Positions 5,198 through 35,625 of a DNA stretch of 64,000 bases are shown in pieces. Source of the stretch: Rhodospirillaceae bacterium (GTDB lineage Bacteria > Pseudomonadota > Alphaproteobacteria > GCA-2746255); contig NVWO01000007.1 in assembly GCA_002746255.1 (NCBI GenBank), positions 2,404 through 66,403 on the forward strand, read 5' to 3'. A program made the position numbers and the translations under genes. Each line of letters starts with the position of its first letter. The first letter of the stretch is position 1. Below the pieces are notes generated by a model that searched no databases, was not told the origin of the DNA, and was given only the letters and a program-made list of their open reading frames with translations.

Positions 5198-6175
5198 TCA
5201 ACCGTCCCGCGCGGGCATCAGGCAATTTTGCAGCGACGTGGCGTTTGTTTGCATCATCTGGAAGTAAAGGTCTGGGCTTGGTGTCAGACCACTTCCCAGC
5301 GGGTCCAGCGGCGCGGTGGAAATATCCGATCCCTCACGCAAGCGCGCAAGGATAGGCGCGGTGAATTGAGGTTCGTGGAAAAGGCAGCGAAAGGCGTTTT
5401 CGGTGATTTTCCTGCGAAGTGCCACGATCCGGCGTGGGCCGGCCCGGCGTTCGGGATCAATGGCGACGGCTTGCGACGGGCCGAGGTCATAACGCCCTTC
5501 AAGATAGGCATAGGAATCGTGAAAAACGAGGTACGGGATGCCGGCGAGGGGGGCAAGCTTTCGCCGTATTTCCAGGTCCAGGGCGCGCAGCCTTGCGATT
5601 GTCCTGTCGCGATTTTGCCGATAGATGGCCGTCCGTTCCGGGTTCGCTTCACCAAGCTGTTCGGCGACGATTGCCACAATCCGGATTGCGTTTTCCGGGT
5701 CGAGCCAGAAATGGGGGTCCAATTGGTAATTTGCGTCCGGATTGTGAGATTCGCTGTCGGTATCCCGATGCAGATGCCTCGCCTCACGGCGGAATATGCC
5801 CGGTGCGTGCAGAAGGGCTATGATTTTGGCCCCAGATTTTTCCGACAGACGCTTTAAGGGCGTTTCCAGAAAATTCTCCAGTTCCGGCCCGACCCAGAAG
5901 ACAAGATCTGCCTCTGCGAGGTGCCTGGCGGTCGATGGGCGTAGCATCGCGCGGTGAGGGGAGGTGCCGCCGGGGCTGAGAAGAGCCGGTTTTCCGATCC
6001 CCTCCATGACGGCGGCGACAAGGGAATGCAGGGGGGGGATGCTGACGGCCACAGCGGGTGGTGCGACCACGGCGGGTGGCGCAGTCACAGCGGGCGGTGT
6101 GGCTTTGACCGGTTGGATGGCTAGGCCAAAAACGACCAAAACAGAAAGAACATTAAAGACTTTTAATAACGGCAT
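5198..6175 (-). CDS. znuA: zinc ABC transporter substrate-binding protein ZnuA with His-rich loop
   Basis: Signal peptide, ZnuA/TroA fold motifs, His/Asp/Glu-rich loop HLHRDTDSESHNPD. Divergent from zur-znuCB across a Zur box. Confidence 0.85.
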   Translation of the reverse strand: MPLLKVFNVLSVLVVFGLAIQPVKATPPAVTAPPAVVAPPAVAVSIPPLHSLVAAVMEGIGKPALLSPGGTSPHRAMLRPSTARHLAEADLVFWVGPELENFLETPLKRLSEKSGAKIIALLHAPGIFRREARHLHRDTDSESHNPDANYQLDPHFWLDPENAIRIVAIVAEQLGEANPERTAIYRQNRDRTIARLRALDLEIRRKLAPLAGIPYLVFHDSYAYLEGRYDLGPSQAVAIDPERRAGPRRIVALRRKITENAFRCLFHEPQFTAPILARLREGSDISTAPLDPLGSGLTPSPDLYFQMMQTNATSLQNCLMPARDG

Positions 6176-6247
6176 GAAATATAGTTACTTTTTCGTCTTT
6201 AAAGGCGCGTCTGTACGACGTCCTTCGCCTTGTTTCTATAGAAGGTA

Positions 6248-6262
6248 TGTTATAGCATAACA
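6248..6262. promoter_or_regulatory. candidate Zur box (palindrome TGTTAT-AGC-ATAACA) in the znuA / zur-znuC divergent promoter region
   Basis: Perfect 6-bp inverted half-sites seen in sequence. Resembles the alphaproteobacterial Zur operator (GTAATGTTATAACATTAC type), recalled from memory. Confidence 0.5.
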
Positions 6263-6294
6263 GGCATCTATTCCCTGAAAAATATAGATTTTTT

Positions 6295-7683
6295 ATGCGA
6301 GAAGCGATGAAGTCGATGTCCGGTCAAGAAACGCGGCCAAAAGCTCCACCGCCCGACGATGGGCACGATCATCGCCGCTGTATGACAGAGGCGATGACGG
6401 TGGCGGCGGACCTTTGCCAGCAGCGCGGTGTGCGTTTTACACCGCTTCGCCGTCAGATTCTTGAACTGATCTGGGACAGCCATATGCCCCTTGGGGCTTA
6501 TGCCATTCTTGACCGCCTCCAGGAGGCGGGCAAGTCCGTCCGGCCGCCGACGGTTTACCGCGCCCTCGATTTTCTGAGAGAGCAGGGGCTAATCCACCGG
6601 ATTGAATCCCGGAACGCCTATCTCGGCTGCGTCGATCCGTCGCGGCCCCACCCAAGCCAGCATTTGATTTGCGAAGATTGTGGGAAGGTTACGGAACTGG
6701 ACAATCGGGCGGTCGAAACGACTTTGGCAGCCGGGGCCAGGGCGAAAGATTTTCAACTGGTTGGTGCCACAATTGAGGTCCATGGGTTTTGCCGCGATTG
6801 CCGCCATGAGGTATCGCCGGAGGCGTTGAAAATGCCGCCGGAGGCACCACCACCACAGCCATCGCAGAACCTGTCCGGCACCGGGCAGGATTTGAAGCAG
6901 GGCCCCGTGCTGATCTCGGCAAAGGGGCTGACGCTTCGCCATGGCGGGCTTTTGGTGTTGGATCGCGTCGATCTTGCCGTCCATAAAGGCGAGATTGTGA
7001 CGATCATTGGCCCGAACGGCTCCGGCAAGACAACCCTCGTCCGGGTCCTTCTCGGTCTTATCGACCCCGAGGCGGGCAAAATCAAAAAGGCCAACGGCCT
7101 CCGCATCGGCTACGTGCCCCAGACTTTTGTGGTGGACCCGAACCTGCCCCTTACCGTCCGACGGTTTTTGGCGATGGCGGGGAGGGGGGCGGCGGATGTC
7201 CGCGAGATGCTTGCCGTCGTCGGCGCCGGGGATATCTTGACCCACCCTATTCAAAGCCTTTCCGGTGGCGAGCTTCGCCGGGTTCTGTTGGCGCGCGCCC
7301 TTCTCAGAAGGCCGAATTTGCTTGTCCTTGACGAACCGGTTCAGGGCGTCGATATGCCGGGCCAGTCGGAACTCTACCGGTTGATCGGCGATATCCGCCG
7401 CAAGCAGGGTTGTGCCGTGCTGATGATTTCCCATGATCTGCACCTGGTGATGGCGGCGACGGACGAGGTTATCTGTCTGAACCGCCACGTTTGCTGTGCC
7501 GGCCATCCAGAAGCCGTCAGCCGGCATCCGGAATATCTGGCCCTGTTTGGCGAAGTGGCCGATGAGACGCGTTTTGCCGTCTACACCCATCACCACGATC
7601 ACGTCCACGACGAGGCCGGAAATGTTTTACCGGCCTCCGATGTGCCACCTACCGGGGGGCCGACCCCCGGACCGGAGGTCTAA
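6295..7683 (+). CDS. znuC: single 462-aa ORF: Fur-family zinc uptake regulator Zur (aa 1-172) fused in frame through a Pro-rich linker to zinc ABC transporter ATPase ZnuC (aa about 200-462)
   Basis: Zur part: winged-helix segment plus CEDCGKV and CRDCRHE CxxC pairs. No stop codon follows it. Linker VSPEALKMPPEAPPPQPSQ. ZnuC part: Walker A GPNGSGKTT, signature LSGGELRRV, Walker B LLVLDEP, H-loop ISHDLH, His-rich tail. Internal ATG at about 6832 is preceded by GGAGG. Confidence 0.75.
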   Translation: MREAMKSMSGQETRPKAPPPDDGHDHRRCMTEAMTVAADLCQQRGVRFTPLRRQILELIWDSHMPLGAYAILDRLQEAGKSVRPPTVYRALDFLREQGLIHRIESRNAYLGCVDPSRPHPSQHLICEDCGKVTELDNRAVETTLAAGARAKDFQLVGATIEVHGFCRDCRHEVSPEALKMPPEAPPPQPSQNLSGTGQDLKQGPVLISAKGLTLRHGGLLVLDRVDLAVHKGEIVTIIGPNGSGKTTLVRVLLGLIDPEAGKIKKANGLRIGYVPQTFVVDPNLPLTVRRFLAMAGRGAADVREMLAVVGAGDILTHPIQSLSGGELRRVLLARALLRRPNLLVLDEPVQGVDMPGQSELYRLIGDIRRKQGCAVLMISHDLHLVMAATDEVICLNRHVCCAGHPEAVSRHPEYLALFGEVADETRFAVYTHHHDHVHDEAGNVLPASDVPPTGGPTPGPEV

Positions 7684-7686
7684 GCC

Positions 7687-8529
7687 ATGGATGATCTTTT
7701 GCTGCGCGCGATTTTGGCTGGCATTGGCGTTGCCATTGTCGCCGGCCCCCTGGGCGTGTTCGTGGTCTGGCGGCGGATGGCCTATTTTGGCGACACCATG
7801 GCCCATTCTGCCTTTCTTGGTGTGGCACTTGGCTTCTTGCTGCATCTCGACGCGTTGATTGGTATTTTTGCGGTGGCCGTTGCCATTGCCCTGGCGCTTG
7901 CGTTTGCCGAGCGGCAAAAGCGACTGGCTACCGACACGCTGCTTGGGATTTTTGCCCATGGGGCGCTTGCCTTCGGGCTGGTCGGGCTGGCCTTTCTCGA
8001 AGGCCTGCGTGTGGATCTGATGGGCTATCTCTTTGGCGATATCCTCGCCGTTGGTGATGTGGATCTTCTCTGGATCTATGGCGGCGGCTTCACGGCCCTT
8101 GCCCTCCTTGTGGCGATCTGGCGGCCGCTCCTTGCCATGACGATCCACGAAGAACTTGCCCGGGTCGAGGGCGTGCCGGTGCGCCGGGTGCAGATTTGTT
8201 TCATGATGCTGATTGCGTTGGTGATTGTCGTTGCGATCAAGATCGTGGGCATCCTTTTGATTACGTCGATGCTGATTATTCCGGCGGCGACGGCGCGGCG
8301 CTTTGTCCGTAACCCTGAGGCAATGGCTGTGCTTGCCGCCTTTCTTGGCGTCGCGGCCGTCATTGGCGGGGTCTGGGGCTCGTTCACTTGGGACACGCCG
8401 TCCGGCCCATCAATCGCCGCCACGGCCTTCCTGATCTTTGCGGCAAGCCTGCTTGTGCCGGTTGGTGCCTTGGGTTATATGGCGGGGCGAAAGAAGGAAC
8501 CCGTCGCCCATGCGCAGTCCCATCTTTAA
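7687..8529 (+). CDS. znuB: zinc ABC transporter permease ZnuB
   Basis: 280 aa, polytopic, ABC-3 family permease, directly after znuC. Confidence 0.85.
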   Translation: MDDLLLRAILAGIGVAIVAGPLGVFVVWRRMAYFGDTMAHSAFLGVALGFLLHLDALIGIFAVAVAIALALAFAERQKRLATDTLLGIFAHGALAFGLVGLAFLEGLRVDLMGYLFGDILAVGDVDLLWIYGGGFTALALLVAIWRPLLAMTIHEELARVEGVPVRRVQICFMMLIALVIVVAIKIVGILLITSMLIIPAATARRFVRNPEAMAVLAAFLGVAAVIGGVWGSFTWDTPSGPSIAATAFLIFAASLLVPVGALGYMAGRKKEPVAHAQSHL

Positions 8530-8908
8530 TAAGCTCGGTAACGCCCTTGCCGTTTTCGGCATCCTTTGCCTCATCCTTTCCGGTGCGGGCCAGGCGAGGC
8601 CGGCTTCGGCCCCTGTAACGGGGGAGATGCCTGGCGATCTCGCGATCGCGCTTCAGACAATTTGCTCCGGTTCCGGCCTCCGCCACGCAGGCGGGGAAGG
8701 GCCGTCTTCACCACACGAACCGGGGTCGATTGCGTGTTCGCTTTGCTGTCTGCAGGGACCGTCACCGCTCGCATTCGTTCCAGCTTCTTTCGTTGCCTTG
8801 CCATCTTTCACGGCTCTGGCATTCCTTCTGCCGGCGGTGCGGCAGACAGACAGCTTCCTTGTGACGCGGCCTCCAAGCCGCGCACCGCCACGCACGCACA
8901 TTCTCTAG
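8510..8908 (+). CDS. small exported Cys-containing protein, DUF2946-like
   Basis: Start MRSPIFNKLGNALAVFGILCLILSG overlaps the znuB stop by about 20 nt. Carries CSLCC and a C-terminal RAPPRTHIL. Family assignment is from memory. Confidence 0.45.
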   Translation: MRSPIFNKLGNALAVFGILCLILSGAGQARPASAPVTGEMPGDLAIALQTICSGSGLRHAGGEGPSSPHEPGSIACSLCCLQGPSPLAFVPASFVALPSFTALAFLLPAVRQTDSFLVTRPPSRAPPRTHIL

Positions 8909-8976
8909 CTTTTCCAAGTTTACTGTTTTCTGGAAGCGTTTTTTCTGCCTCGCGGCAGAAGAAAGAAATGTGAAAG

Positions 8977-9783
8977 TTGCGAACGATGAAATTCTTAAAC
9001 GTCTCAGGGTTTTTTCTATGTCTTCTCCTGGCGGGCACTCCGGCGATTGCTCATGAGAAGGGAAAGCCTTCACCGGAATCCCTGCATTTTCTTGATCCTC
9101 TTATTGGCGAAACGCCAACGCTGGAAACGAGCCTTCGCCTCGATCACCGCTTTCGCAATCGGGCAGCAGGCACGGAACACACCCTTGGGTTGACGGCAGA
9201 ATACGCTTTCAATGACTGGCTTGGGTTTGAACTTGGCGTGCCATACGCTTTTTTAGATCCGGGCGATGGGCCAAGCCGTTCGAACCTCGGCACAATCGAA
9301 ATCGGTCTAAAATTCGCGCCCTTTATCTTTCCGGCAGAAGGGCTCGCCTTCGGCGGTGGGCTTGAAATCGGGCTACCCACCGGGGATGAAAGCAAGGCAA
9401 TCGGCAGCAACCGTGAATGGGAGCTGGAACCCTTTCTGAATGCGGGCTGGCAAGTGCGCGGCCTGCAAATGACGGCCCAACTCAGCTTTGGGATTCCTAT
9501 GAACCAATCGGAAGAAGAAGCGGACGAAGTCGATCTTGAAATCGGCTTCAATCTCGCTTTTCTTTATCCGCTCTCGCCGAAATTCACGCCGTTGCTTGAA
9601 TTCGATGGCAAGGGGGTCGCAAAAGGCACCGACAACAAAACAGTGATCAACGCCACTATTGGTTTTTTAAGCGCGCCTTTTGAAAACGAAGACATCAAAC
9701 TGGGTTTTGGCCTTGGCGCACCGCTTACCAGCGATGAGAATTTTGACGTCCGGACGATTTTTACGGTTTTCTACGAATTATAG
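8977..9783 (+). CDS. putative outer-membrane beta-barrel protein (signal peptide, alternating amphipathic strands)
   Basis: 268 aa, signal peptide ...AGTPAIAHE, many G/F/L alternations, ends FTVFYEL. Confidence 0.5.
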   Translation: MRTMKFLNVSGFFLCLLLAGTPAIAHEKGKPSPESLHFLDPLIGETPTLETSLRLDHRFRNRAAGTEHTLGLTAEYAFNDWLGFELGVPYAFLDPGDGPSRSNLGTIEIGLKFAPFIFPAEGLAFGGGLEIGLPTGDESKAIGSNREWELEPFLNAGWQVRGLQMTAQLSFGIPMNQSEEEADEVDLEIGFNLAFLYPLSPKFTPLLEFDGKGVAKGTDNKTVINATIGFLSAPFENEDIKLGFGLGAPLTSDENFDVRTIFTVFYEL

Positions 9784-9790
9784 GGGCGGT

Positions 9791-10954
9791 CTAGCCAGCG
9801 GCGTTTAGCCGCTTGAAGCCTTCGTCGAGGTCCTGAATCAAATCGTCCGGGTCTTCAAGCCCCGCATGGATACGGATGGCAGGCCCTTCTTTCCAGGTCG
9901 TCGCCGTTCGGATTGTTTCTGGGTAGATGGGGAGGATCAGGCTTTCATAGCCGCCCCAGCTATACCCGATGGCGAACAGTTTCATGCCGTCGAGCATGGC
10001 GGCGATGGCTTTTTTCGGACGGTCCCTGAGGATGAAGGAAAAAAGCCCCGGCGCACCGGTGAAGTCGCGTTTCCAGATGGCATGGCCCGGATCTTCGGGA
10101 AGGGCTGGATAAAGAATTCGCGCCACTTCGCGTCGCTCTTTCAGCCATTCGCAGAGGATGCGCGCCGTTTTCTGATGCCGTTCAAGGCGGATGTGGAGCG
10201 TGCGCAGGCCGCGCAGGGCCAGATAGCATTCTTCAGGTGCCGAACAGCCCCCCAGACTGGCGACCGTCTGCCGGACCGTCTTGAAATGTGGCTCAAGGGT
10301 GGTGATGACGCCAAGCATGGCGTCTGCGTGGCCGACGATGTATTTCGTCGCCGCCTGAATCGAAACGTCAACGCCATGGTCGAACGGCTTGAAGTAAAGC
10401 GGCGTCGCCCAACTGTTGTCCAGGATGACGACGGCCCCTTTTTCATGGGCTGCTTTGGCGATGGCAGGAATGTCCTGCACTTCGAAGGTCAGCGATCCGG
10501 GTTGCTCGACAAAGACGACCTTCGTGTTTGACCGCAGCAAATCCTTGATGCCGGCGCCTATAAGCGGATCGTAATAGGTCGTTTCGACGCCGAAGCGCGC
10601 CAGCACCTGATCGCAAAAATACCGTGTCGGCCCATAGACGCTGTCGGCAACCAGAAGGTGATCGCCCGCTTTGAGGAAGGCGAAAAGCGATGCGGCGATG
10701 GCGGCAAGGCCTGACGCCATTGCGATGCTGCGATCGCCGCCTTCAAGCTCCGCGATGGCGGCTTCCAGCGCAAAGGTCGTCGGCGTGCCGTGGCGACCGT
10801 AATAGACCCCGTCGAAGGGGTGCTTGTCGAAGGATTCAAGCGCCGCAAGGCTTGGAAAGGTCACGGTGGAGGCGCGATAGATCGGTGGATTGACGATCCC
10901 GAAATTTTCTTCCGGGTTCCGCCCGGCATTGACGATGCGCGTGTCTTCCTTCAT
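9791..10954 (-). CDS. metC: cystathionine beta-lyase (PLP-dependent, Cys/Met metabolism family)
   Basis: Cys/Met-metabolism PLP fold motifs (VVILDNSWATP, AATKYIVGHAD). Start taken at MKEDTRIVNAGR; the track ORF extends to 11023. Confidence 0.75.
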   Translation of the reverse strand: MKEDTRIVNAGRNPEENFGIVNPPIYRASTVTFPSLAALESFDKHPFDGVYYGRHGTPTTFALEAAIAELEGGDRSIAMASGLAAIAASLFAFLKAGDHLLVADSVYGPTRYFCDQVLARFGVETTYYDPLIGAGIKDLLRSNTKVVFVEQPGSLTFEVQDIPAIAKAAHEKGAVVILDNSWATPLYFKPFDHGVDVSIQAATKYIVGHADAMLGVITTLEPHFKTVRQTVASLGGCSAPEECYLALRGLRTLHIRLERHQKTARILCEWLKERREVARILYPALPEDPGHAIWKRDFTGAPGLFSFILRDRPKKAIAAMLDGMKLFAIGYSWGGYESLILPIYPETIRTATTWKEGPAIRIHAGLEDPDDLIQDLDEGFKRLNAAG

Positions 10955-11097
10955 CTGAAACCTGTCCACTTTACCGCGATGCCCGATCTTTCCGCTTGTA
11001 AAGTGACTGGCAGGGCCGGTCAAGGCGTCCGCTTTTGGGCTTGGAGAACGCCGCCCTTTCTAAGATGATGGGCCGGAAACAGGATTGAAGGTGCTGC

Positions 11098-12327
11098 ATG
11101 CCCCATACTCACGCCACCATTCTTCTTCTGCTGATCGTGCTTGGCGTTCTTGCCGGCGTCGTGACCGGCTGGTTCTGGGGAGAAGACATGCTTGCCGTTG
11201 CCTGGCTGGGCGAACTTTTTCTGAACGCGCTGAAGATGCTGATTATTCCCCTGATCGTCGCTGCCGTCATCAGCGGCGTGGCTTCCCTGGGCGACATAAG
11301 AAAATTGGGGCGTATTGGCGGCATTACCATTCTTTACTTTGTCGGCACGACGGCGGTGGCGGTGGTCATCGGGCTTGTCGTCGTCAATCTCATTCAGCCC
11401 GGCGTTGGGCTTGACTTCGAAGTACAAAGTCTGCCCGAAGCGGTCGCGGCGAAAAGGGAAATCGGCTTTACGGACATCCTGCTTTCCATTGTGTCGCCGA
11501 ATTTGATCGCGTCCGCCGCAGAAATGCAGCTTCTGCCCCTGATCTTCTTTTCCATCCTGCTTTCCGCCGCCCTGACAACGTTGGGGCCGGTTGGCGAGCA
11601 TGTCATCGGGCTTTTCAACGGGTTGAACGAAGCGTTGATGAAGGTGGTCATCTGGCTGATGTATTTTGCGCCGGTTGGTATCTTCGCCCTTGTCGCTGCG
11701 CGCCTTGGAAAGGCAGGGGGTGGGGATGCGTTTTTAGCCGAGGTGAGCGCCGTCGGCCTTCATGTCGTGACCGTGTTGAGCGGGCTGACGATCCATTTTC
11801 TCTTTCTGGTGCTGCTGATGATCTTTGTAAGCGGCCGGGGGTTGGGCTATCTGCTGGGCCTGATGCGCGCGCTTCTGACGGCGTTCGGCACGGCCAGTTC
11901 GTCGGCGACCCTGCCGTTGACGATGGAATGCGCGCGCGAACAGGCGGTGGACGAAAAAGCGATCCGCTTCGTCCTGCCGCTGGGAAGCACGGTCAACATG
12001 AACGGCACCGCCCTTTATGAGGCGGCGGCGGCGATGTTCATTGCCCAGGCCTATGGCATCGATCTTGGGCTGGGGGCCCAGAGTCTGGTTTTCATCACCG
12101 CCACCCTTGCCGCCATCGGTGCCGCCGGCATTCCCGAGGCAGGCCTGGTGACGATGGTCATCGTGTTGACGGCCGTGGGGTTACCCCTGGAGGGGCTTGG
12201 GCTTTTGCTTGCGGTTGACTGGTTCCTCGACCGCTTCCGCACGGCGGTGAACGTCTGGGGCGACGCGACAGGGGCGGCGATTGTTCACCGGTTTTTGCCG
12301 AAGCCCTCCTCCGGTGGCACGTCTTAG
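11098..12327 (+). CDS. dicarboxylate/amino acid:cation symporter (DAACS family)
   Basis: 409 aa, GltP/DctA-like transmembrane protein (PLGSTVNMNGTALYE). Confidence 0.75.
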   Translation: MPHTHATILLLLIVLGVLAGVVTGWFWGEDMLAVAWLGELFLNALKMLIIPLIVAAVISGVASLGDIRKLGRIGGITILYFVGTTAVAVVIGLVVVNLIQPGVGLDFEVQSLPEAVAAKREIGFTDILLSIVSPNLIASAAEMQLLPLIFFSILLSAALTTLGPVGEHVIGLFNGLNEALMKVVIWLMYFAPVGIFALVAARLGKAGGGDAFLAEVSAVGLHVVTVLSGLTIHFLFLVLLMIFVSGRGLGYLLGLMRALLTAFGTASSSATLPLTMECAREQAVDEKAIRFVLPLGSTVNMNGTALYEAAAAMFIAQAYGIDLGLGAQSLVFITATLAAIGAAGIPEAGLVTMVIVLTAVGLPLEGLGLLLAVDWFLDRFRTAVNVWGDATGAAIVHRFLPKPSSGGTS

Positions 12328-35337: not shown

Positions 35338-35413
35338 TGGCTCCCCGAGTCGGACTCGAACCAACGACACAGCGGTTAACAGCCGCTTGCTCTACCAACT
35401 GAGCTACCGGGGA
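35338..35413 (-). tRNA. tRNA-Asn (anticodon GUU)
   Basis: Reverse complement folds as a cloverleaf: acceptor UCCCCGG/UCGGGGA, anticodon loop CUGUUAA, T-arm GUUGGUUCGAGUCCGAC, encoded CCA. Confidence 0.85.
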
Positions 35414-35551: not shown

Positions 35552-35625
35552 TGGAGGCGCGGGCCGGATTCGAACCGGCGTACACAGATTTGCAGTCTGC
35601 TGGATAACCACTCTCCCACCGCGCC
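35552..35625 (-). tRNA. tRNA-Cys (anticodon GCA)
   Basis: Reverse complement GGCGCGGUGGGAGAGUGGUUAUCCAGCAGACUGCAAAUCUGU...GGUUCGAAUCCGGCCCGCGCCUCCA. Confidence 0.85.

Follow-up and report, generated by a model that had tools for sequence, protein, structure and literature searches.

The repressor Zur and the importer ZnuABC form the textbook pair for the control of zinc uptake in bacteria, and work on them has treated the two as separate molecules. Zur forms dimers; ZnuC, a peripheral subunit of the importer, is likewise dimeric within the ZnuB2C2 complex. The closest described gene arrangement is that of Pseudomonas aeruginosa, for which a zur-znuC-znuB operon with a divergent znuA gene and autorepression has been published (PMC3781045). 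Here we analyze a stretch of 64,000 nucleotides (nt) of contig NVWO01000007.1 (positions 2,404 to 66,403; hereafter, the window) from a marine alphaproteobacterium recorded as Rhodospirillaceae bacterium, in which zur and znuC constitute one open reading frame (ORF), zur::znuC. We place at roughly 0.65 the probability that zur::znuC is a genuine fusion, maintained by selection, that would encode a bifunctional and self-repressing regulator-ATPase.

The locus resembles that of P. aeruginosa (Np20/Zur; PMC3781045) in the order and orientation of its genes, in the presence of a predicted Zur box in the short intergenic region between znuA and zur, and in an operon that would be repressed by the product of its first gene. 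The encoded proteins are also alike, and include a Gram-negative-type Zur, with equivalents of Tyr45 and Arg65 and with the Cys4 and His/Cys/His/Glu zinc sites, and a ZnuC carrying a C-terminal CxxxHxCC motif. By contrast, zur and znuC are separate ORFs in P. aeruginosa and in all of about 45 species-representative loci in which the two genes are adjacent, whereas the window has a single ORF with a tether predicted to be disordered. The covalent link and the tether are what is new relative to the known zur-znuCB/znuA arrangement. A full-text search of a limited literature collection found no description of a natural Zur-ZnuC fusion, and returned only reporter fusions and the unfused operon.

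The second point of reference is the ZnuB2C2 complex of Escherichia coli (PDB code 9okq; PMC12236471). The window protein shares its ATPase core and has equivalents of C193, H197, C199, C200, H230, H232 and H234, and a ZnuC dimer is expected. In E. coli, however, ZnuC has no N-terminal domain and the zur gene is unlinked. A further difference concerns His246, the last M2 ligand of the E. coli protein, since no histidine is found in the tail of the window protein (amino acids (aa) 439-462); many of the fused relatives end in ...HDHG.

Architecture of the Zur-ZnuC protein

The genes of the locus and the regions of the fused protein are the following, in window coordinates.

5198..6175, minus strand: znuA, periplasmic zinc-binding protein, divergent from the fusion gene; full-length match to the Pfam ZnuA profile, expectation value (E) 2.8e-56
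6295..7683, plus strand: zur::znuC fusion ORF, from ATG 6295 to TAA 7681-7683; 462 aa plus stop, zero internal stops
6295..6381, plus strand: N-terminal extension, aa 1-29, ending in an HDHxxC motif (aa 24-29, 6364-6381)
6382..6810, plus strand: Zur domain, aa 30-172, winged helix and dimerisation domain
6811..6906, plus strand: interdomain linker, aa 173-204, rich in Pro, Ala, Ser and Glu, predicted disordered
6819..6834, plus strand: putative internal start, GGAGG at 6819-6823, an 8-nt spacer and ATG at 6832-6834 (Met180); would give a ZnuC of 283 aa
6907..7470, plus strand: ZnuC nucleotide-binding domain (NBD), aa 205-392
7471..7632, plus strand: ZnuC C-terminal zinc-sensing domain, aa 393-446, with the CxxxHxCC motif and a His cluster
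7687..8529, plus strand: znuB permease, beginning 4 nt past the fusion stop; Pfam ABC-3, E 7.7e-73

The sequence-only reading of this DNA had described a zur frame with a complete Fur-family fold, both CxxC pairs and no stop codon, which runs through a Pro-rich linker into a complete ZnuC ATPase. The analysis bears this description out. The frame is a single ORF of 462 codons that contains both C126/C129 and C166/C169; the linker, which reads CRHEVSPEALKMPPEAPPPQPSQNLSGTGQDLKQGPV, is present, and the NCBIfam ZnuC equivalog (NF007090) matches aa 206-445 with 306 bits, a score equal to its cut-off of 306, over profile positions 4-243 of 251. The genes znuA and znuB that flank the fusion are both intact. 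ATG 6307 and ATG 6316 are alternative starts of the ORF, and an ortholog that is 89% identical to the window protein (locus L091, protein P0002) has a GTG aligned to the window start. The identical protein is recorded at NCBI as PCJ59555.1, 'MAG: hypothetical protein [Rhodospirillaceae bacterium]', and is also found in a second record (JGI/ENA) on another contig.

The AlphaFold2 (AF2) model comprises two confident domains, with predicted local distance difference test (pLDDT) values of 75-96 for Zur and of about 90 for the ZnuC NBD. The Zur region is confident over aa 25-170, and the pLDDT falls below 50 in the linker (aa 173-198). The length of the protein does not match the stand-alone ZnuC type of about 250 aa, as the Zur domain is added at its N-terminus.

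By family membership, the N-terminal half is predicted to be a Gram-negative-type Zur. The Pfam FUR profile matches aa 44-162 (E 2.5e-18; 66.8 bits, cut-off 23.1) over profile positions 2-120 of 121. A phmmer search of the PDB with the Zur half retrieved the Zur proteins of Xanthomonas (PDB code 7dh7; E 1.2e-31) and of E. coli, the latter on DNA (PDB code 4mtd; E 3.6e-28). The NCBIfam Zur model PRK11639 (NF008646) matches aa 32-171 with 126.5 bits, under its cut-off of 167; because this model is centred on enterobacterial Zur, the low score concerns the naming of the protein and is not at odds with the comparison at the level of residues. The zinc ligands and the DNA-contacting residues of E. 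coli Zur (PMC4219657) align to the window protein as follows.

Structural zinc site A: C126, C129, C166 and C169 (E. coli C103, C106, C143 and C146)
Regulatory zinc site B: H101, C112, H119 and E134 (E. coli H77, C88, H96 and E111)
Base-reading residues: Y69 and R89 (E. coli Tyr45 and Arg65)

Counterparts of all eight zinc ligands and of the two base-reading residues are present in the window protein. Y69, R89, H101, C112, C126 and E134 are invariant in 15 of the 15 aligned sequences, C129, C166 and C169 are nearly so, and the recognition helix PPTVYRALDFL is invariant. The HDHxxC motif that precedes the domain has no counterpart in E. coli Zur. The full-length sequences of the two fused clades share it, as does the Pseudomonas-like P0014, and it may represent an extra metal site of this Zur subgroup.

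The C-terminal half is assigned to ZnuC by the same kind of sequence comparison. Pfam ABC_tran matches aa 222-349 (E 1.2e-27), and the E. coli ZnuC chains of the cryo-electron microscopy structures 9okq, 9oko and 9okp match this half with an E of about 3e-79. The genomic linkage of ZnuC, to znuB immediately downstream and to the divergent znuA upstream, is also found in the window. The functional residues of this half are:

ATPase motifs: Walker A GPNGSGKT, aa 239-246; Q276; signature LSGGE, aa 322-326; Walker B LLVLDEP, aa 342-348; H380
Zinc-sensing residues: C394, H398, C400 and C401 (CxxxHxCC); His cluster H432/H434/H436/H438

Residues G239-K245, Q276, S323-E326, D346-E347 and H380 are invariant in both alignments (A1 and A2, the latter of 38 sequences for the ZnuC motifs), and T246 is nearly invariant. 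C394, H398, C400, C401, H432, H434 and H436 are invariant in A2. In E. coli ZnuC, the CxxxHxCC motif has been described in a preprint as a post-translational zinc sensor (PMC12236471).

The fused state among relatives

A homologue search that covered 5.8 billion proteins revealed fused FUR+ABC_tran proteins (P0001-P0013) that span 100-49% identity to the window protein and align with it end to end. At the DNA level, loci L001, L002/L003, L085, L086/L087, L088-L090, L091 and L092 each contain one stop-to-stop ORF with the Zur motif and Walker A. For P0013 alone, the index of the assembly collection lists 35 blocks, of which 24 contigs were read. The znuB gene occupies the same position at all fused loci, and the divergent znuA adjoins the fusion in L001, L002/L003, L085 and L086/L087; no znuA was found beside the fusion gene in loci L088-L090. 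The longer loci share synteny with the window, with hisI and a modA-like gene on one side, and znuB followed by metC, a rhodanese gene and a PALP gene on the other. In a neighbour-joining (NJ) tree of concatenated Zur and ZnuC (200 bootstraps), the fused sequences form two clades: group A (window, L091, L092, L085, L001, P0006 and L086), recovered in 200/200 bootstraps, and group B (L002, P0012, P0009, P0010 and L089), recovered in 118/200. Groups A and B come together in 12 of the 200 bootstraps only. Loci L088-L090 belong to group B.

A comparison with orthologous loci had been proposed beforehand as a check on the in-frame fusion, and the relatives likewise have no stop codon between the two halves. 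The sequence-only reading had also offered a lost stop codon or an assembly error in what would otherwise be a normal zur-znuC pair. For this locus we reject such an explanation, be it an artefact of assembly or sequencing or a recent stop loss on the way to a pseudogene, as very improbable in light of the clean junction in the window, with both CxxC pairs, the full ZnuC N-terminus and intact neighbouring genes, and of the recurrence of the fusion in many independent assemblies and in two diverged clades with purifying selection on both halves. Artefacts of this kind do exist on frame-shifted, error-prone contigs (P0014, P0026/L004 and P0158/L093).

These last sequences were considered as further fusions and rejected as the product of frameshifts, as they have garbled junctions, no second CxxC and no ZnuC N-terminus. 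The assemblies that contain L004 and L093 are error-prone, with adjacent genes broken into 2-3 pieces, and the contig of P0014 measures 2.2 kb. Such false 'Zur-ZnuC(-ZnuB) fusions' in public protein sets would inflate the domain-architecture counts of this fusion. A protein of 316 aa, P0290, contains partial FUR and ABC matches.

Computed against L091, the ratio of nonsynonymous to synonymous substitution rates (dN/dS) is 0.03 in the zinc-sensing domain, 0.11 in Zur, 0.13 in the NBD, 0.16 in the N-terminal extension and 0.26 in the linker. Both domains are therefore under purifying selection (dN/dS of about 0.1), and the value for the extension indicates that it is translated. The linker varies in sequence and in length (25-72 aa) among the orthologs. 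Every linker indel is in frame, even among sequences that are at least 90% identical, where a 5-aa ATSSG repeat unit and differences of 3 aa and 4 aa were observed. The residues for catalysis and metal binding vary little or not at all. The one exception is H119, the equivalent of His96: group A and, within group B, the P0012/P0013 branch retain it, whereas P0009-P0011 have another residue. The in-frame indels and the constancy of these residues argue that selection maintains the fused state.

The same data bear on an alternative in which one gene gives two proteins, so that Zur and ZnuC act separately, after internal initiation at ATG 6832 or proteolysis of the linker, and the full-length protein is minor or transient. 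We consider this rather unlikely. An internal ATG with GGAGG 8 nt upstream, from which free ZnuC was said probably also to be made, does exist at 6832-6834 in the window, and initiation there is possible in this genome. The linker, being predicted disordered, is possibly accessible to proteases, and GTG codons preceded by GGAGG occur close to the ZnuC N-terminus in L088-L090. The expectation of free ZnuC is weakened by the relatives, as the start at ATG 6832 is not conserved in L091/P0002, L001, L085 or L086. In the 89%-identical ortholog a His is aligned to Met180, so that the start is missing there. In L086, no in-frame ATG, GTG or TTG was found in the stretch that begins at the last CxxC and ends 20 aa short of Walker A. 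The linker of L085 has a single GTG, which lacks a Shine-Dalgarno sequence and, at a distance of 26 aa, is too near to Walker A, so that initiation there would truncate the first strand. With no usable internal start, ZnuC of these two loci would be translated only as the fusion, and the full-length protein must then be able to act as an ATPase. Furthermore, an untranslated or irrelevant spacer would predict frame-breaking indels with re-initiation in some lineages, whereas the frame is kept through many indels.

The unfused state was defined from 80 species-representative loci among the matches listed, none of which belongs to the window's own clade. The fusion is absent from all 80, and zur lies directly upstream of znuC as a separate ORF in about 45 of them, with examples in Pseudomonas, Halopseudomonas, Marinomonas, Magnetovibrio, Magnetospirillum and Hyphomicrobium. 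Of the 15 unfused loci that were detailed, most have the probable znuC start no more than a few nt from the zur stop, which it abuts or overlaps, and a change of 1-2 nt would therefore merge the frames. The fusion would thus have originated in an ancestral zur-znuC-znuB operon with an abutting or overlapping zur stop and znuC start that lost this boundary. Between the last CxxC and Walker A there are 53-100 aa in the fusions and about 40-64 aa (Zur tail plus ZnuC N-terminus) in the unfused relatives, and hence the tether seems to have been lengthened after fusion. In four unfused loci, L005-L008 (from metagenome-assembled genomes (MAGs) of an Oceanospirillaceae, two Hyphomicrobium and a Proteobacteria), zur and znuC are in the same frame with one stop codon between them, and would be one substitution away from the fused state.

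Predicted operator and control of zinc uptake

The predicted operator lies in the divergent promoter region between znuA and zur::znuC.

6248..6262 (extended site 6246-6264): predicted Zur box, core TGTTATAGCATAACA, a perfect 6-3-6 palindrome

The box lies upstream of both genes, at 33 nt from ATG 6295 and at 73 nt from the znuA start. With 0 mismatches, TGTTATAGCATAACA is the sole site with two or fewer mismatches in the 64-kb window. It agrees at 13 of the 15 core positions with the Zur box consensus AATGTTATAWTATAACATT (PMC2706843), which is gammaproteobacterial, the host being an alphaproteobacterium. Equivalent boxes are found upstream of the fused group-B orthologs L002 (ATGTTATAATATAACAA) and L089 (TGTGTTATCTTATAACATA), and weaker, degenerate matches upstream of L001, L085 and L086 in group A.

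Two further elements were noticed in this region. By eye, TTGTTT (6230-6235) and TAGCAT (6253-6258), separated by 17 nt, form a weak promoter candidate that overlaps the Zur box. A second perfect AT-rich palindrome, AAAAATATAGATTTTT (6-4-6), occupies 6278-6293, directly upstream of ATG 6295. The fused orthologs have AT-rich stretches at the equivalent place without a clear conserved motif, and the palindrome could be a second operator half, an UP-like element or a plain AT-rich leader.

On the reading of zur::znuC as a bifunctional regulator-ATPase, the fusion would dimerise, and two Zur domains per ZnuC dimer would fit both the 2:2 stoichiometry of ZnuB2C2 and the dimeric nature of Zur. When zinc is sufficient, the Zur domains would load the metal, bind the Zur box and repress znuA and zur::znuC-znuB. 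When it is scarce, both sensors would let go, the operon would be derepressed, and the same protein would power ZnuB. The fusion fixes repressor and ATPase at 1:1, and autorepression would therefore scale with the level of the transporter. It would also place a transcriptional sensor at the cytoplasmic face of the importer, and we infer from the gene structure a physical tethering of sensor to transporter.

Several points weigh against this reading. In E. coli Zur, an Asp49-Arg52 salt bridge supports dimer-dimer cooperativity (PMC4219657); the equivalent of Asp49 is kept as D73, and that of Arg52 is Gln76 in the window protein, so that operator binding may differ from that of E. coli. A simple scan of 6050-6950 found neither a sigma-70-like promoter nor any terminator. 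Met180 with its GGAGG could yield free ZnuC in the window genome, and a protease could cut the linker. The fusion is also rare: among the 150 best cluster representatives at 50% identity, P0006 alone is a genuine end-to-end fusion, a rarity that would also fit a nearly neutral accident.

In ABC importers, the ATPases often bear regulatory domains that bind a ligand, as in MetNI and ModBC. The Zur domain might, by analogy, have taken on a new role in which it senses zinc and controls the ATPase allosterically, with trans-inhibition of the MetN/ModC kind, and be no longer a DNA-binding repressor. Such domains are common on importer ATPases, and covalent attachment would favour an effect in cis on the NBD dimer. 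We nevertheless regard this alternative as improbable, as the recognition helix with Y69 and R89 is invariant, and a Zur box is retained upstream in both clades, in a weaker and degenerate form in L001, L085 and L086 of group A. In addition, ZnuC already has a conserved zinc-sensing domain of its own for post-translational control, and the AF2 model gives no sign of a fixed arrangement of Zur and the NBD, the tether being long and of low confidence.

A bolder extension of the regulator-ATPase reading is that Zur-ZnuC acts as a transporter-tethered transcription factor. Zur domains on ZnuB2C2 would then meet zinc on its exit from the permease, sense import flux rather than bulk zinc and, once loaded, capture the nearby znu operator at the membrane, with transcriptional shut-off and locking of the ATPase in one complex. 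We put this forward as a speculative proposal of low likelihood. If true, this would be a natural example of a metalloregulator coupled directly to its own uptake system, and it might be the sole Zur that these genomes encode; within the 64-kb window, no second Fur-family gene and no second znuC was found at E ≤ 1.

Described systems offer partial analogies. PutA consists of a DNA-binding domain fused to a membrane-associating enzyme and switches between a repressor and a membrane-bound role, as shown experimentally. It resembles the predicted Zur-ZnuC in concept, in that one polypeptide serves as repressor of its own locus and as pathway enzyme, with both functions responding to the same ligand. 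It differs in its unrelated folds, a ribbon-helix-helix domain and dehydrogenases as opposed to a Fur-family domain and an ABC ATPase, and a comparable switch in Zur-ZnuC would be hypothetical. MalT-MalK and Mlc-PtsG are regulators controlled by transporters without fusion, and ToxR and CadC are membrane-integrated one-component regulators; in all of them, as would be the case for Zur-ZnuC, the control of transcription is physically linked to a complex for transport or sensing at the membrane. The coupling is non-covalent in MalT-MalK and Mlc-PtsG and relies on an own transmembrane helix in ToxR and CadC, whereas the window protein is covalently linked to a peripheral ATPase subunit. No hydrophobic segment that could serve as a transmembrane segment of the ToxR/CadC type was found in it, the order being a Fur domain, a disordered linker and a soluble ABC ATPase, and its association with the membrane, if any, would depend on docking to ZnuB.

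A selected fusion shows that a repressor can work, or is at least tolerated, when covalently bound to the importer ATPase at 1:1. The protein would sense zinc at two places, in the regulatory site of Zur to control transcription and in the zinc-sensing domain of ZnuC to exert control after translation. It thereby offers a compact natural system for asking how two layers of zinc control are coordinated, and whether bulk or transporter-local zinc is sensed; its interest would rise substantially if tethering matters for zinc sensing.

Annotation and neighbouring genes

The fusion is hidden by annotation pipelines. Fused proteins are labelled in databases as 'hypothetical protein', 'ATP-binding cassette domain-containing protein' or 'zinc transport system ATP-binding protein'. 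In three NCBI MAGs of group B (L088:5404-6777, L089:5404-6777 and L090:794-2167), the Prokaryotic Genome Annotation Pipeline (PGAP) reports only a ZnuC of 258 aa from a CTG start, and the in-frame Zur half is unannotated. Zur could therefore be scored as absent from such genomes at this locus.

In L085, a TonB-dependent receptor gene (8442-10841, minus strand) lies beside znuB. A Zur-box-like site, TTTTATATATTAACA (L085:10848-10862), with 2 mismatches, is found 7 nt upstream of this gene, and for this reason the regulon of the fused Zur probably extends beyond its own operon in this organism. In L086 (GCA_040752895.1), the fused ortholog is followed, in the region 8501-11588, by a second ZnuA-ZnuB pair, which has no ATPase gene and is preceded by a protein of 449 aa without a Pfam match. 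This second importer may borrow the fused ZnuC.

Downstream of znuB, the window contains a gene for a small DUF2946 protein (8510-8908, plus strand; Pfam E 6.9e-06), which overlaps the end of znuB by 20 nt, and one for a beta-barrel protein with a signal peptide (8977-9783, plus strand), which resembles Phenol_MetA_deg (E 6.9e-05). Both may form an outer-membrane part of the zinc locus. In L091, the beta-barrel gene (84% identical) directly follows znuB, and its signal peptide resembles the N-terminus of the DUF2946 ORF of the window. This arrangement suggests that the window carries an insertion of about 450 nt, or a rearrangement, downstream of znuB. Farther away, tRNA-Asn(GTT) (35338-35413, minus strand) and tRNA-Cys(GCA) (35552-35625, minus strand) are the sole Rfam matches at gathering score in the window.

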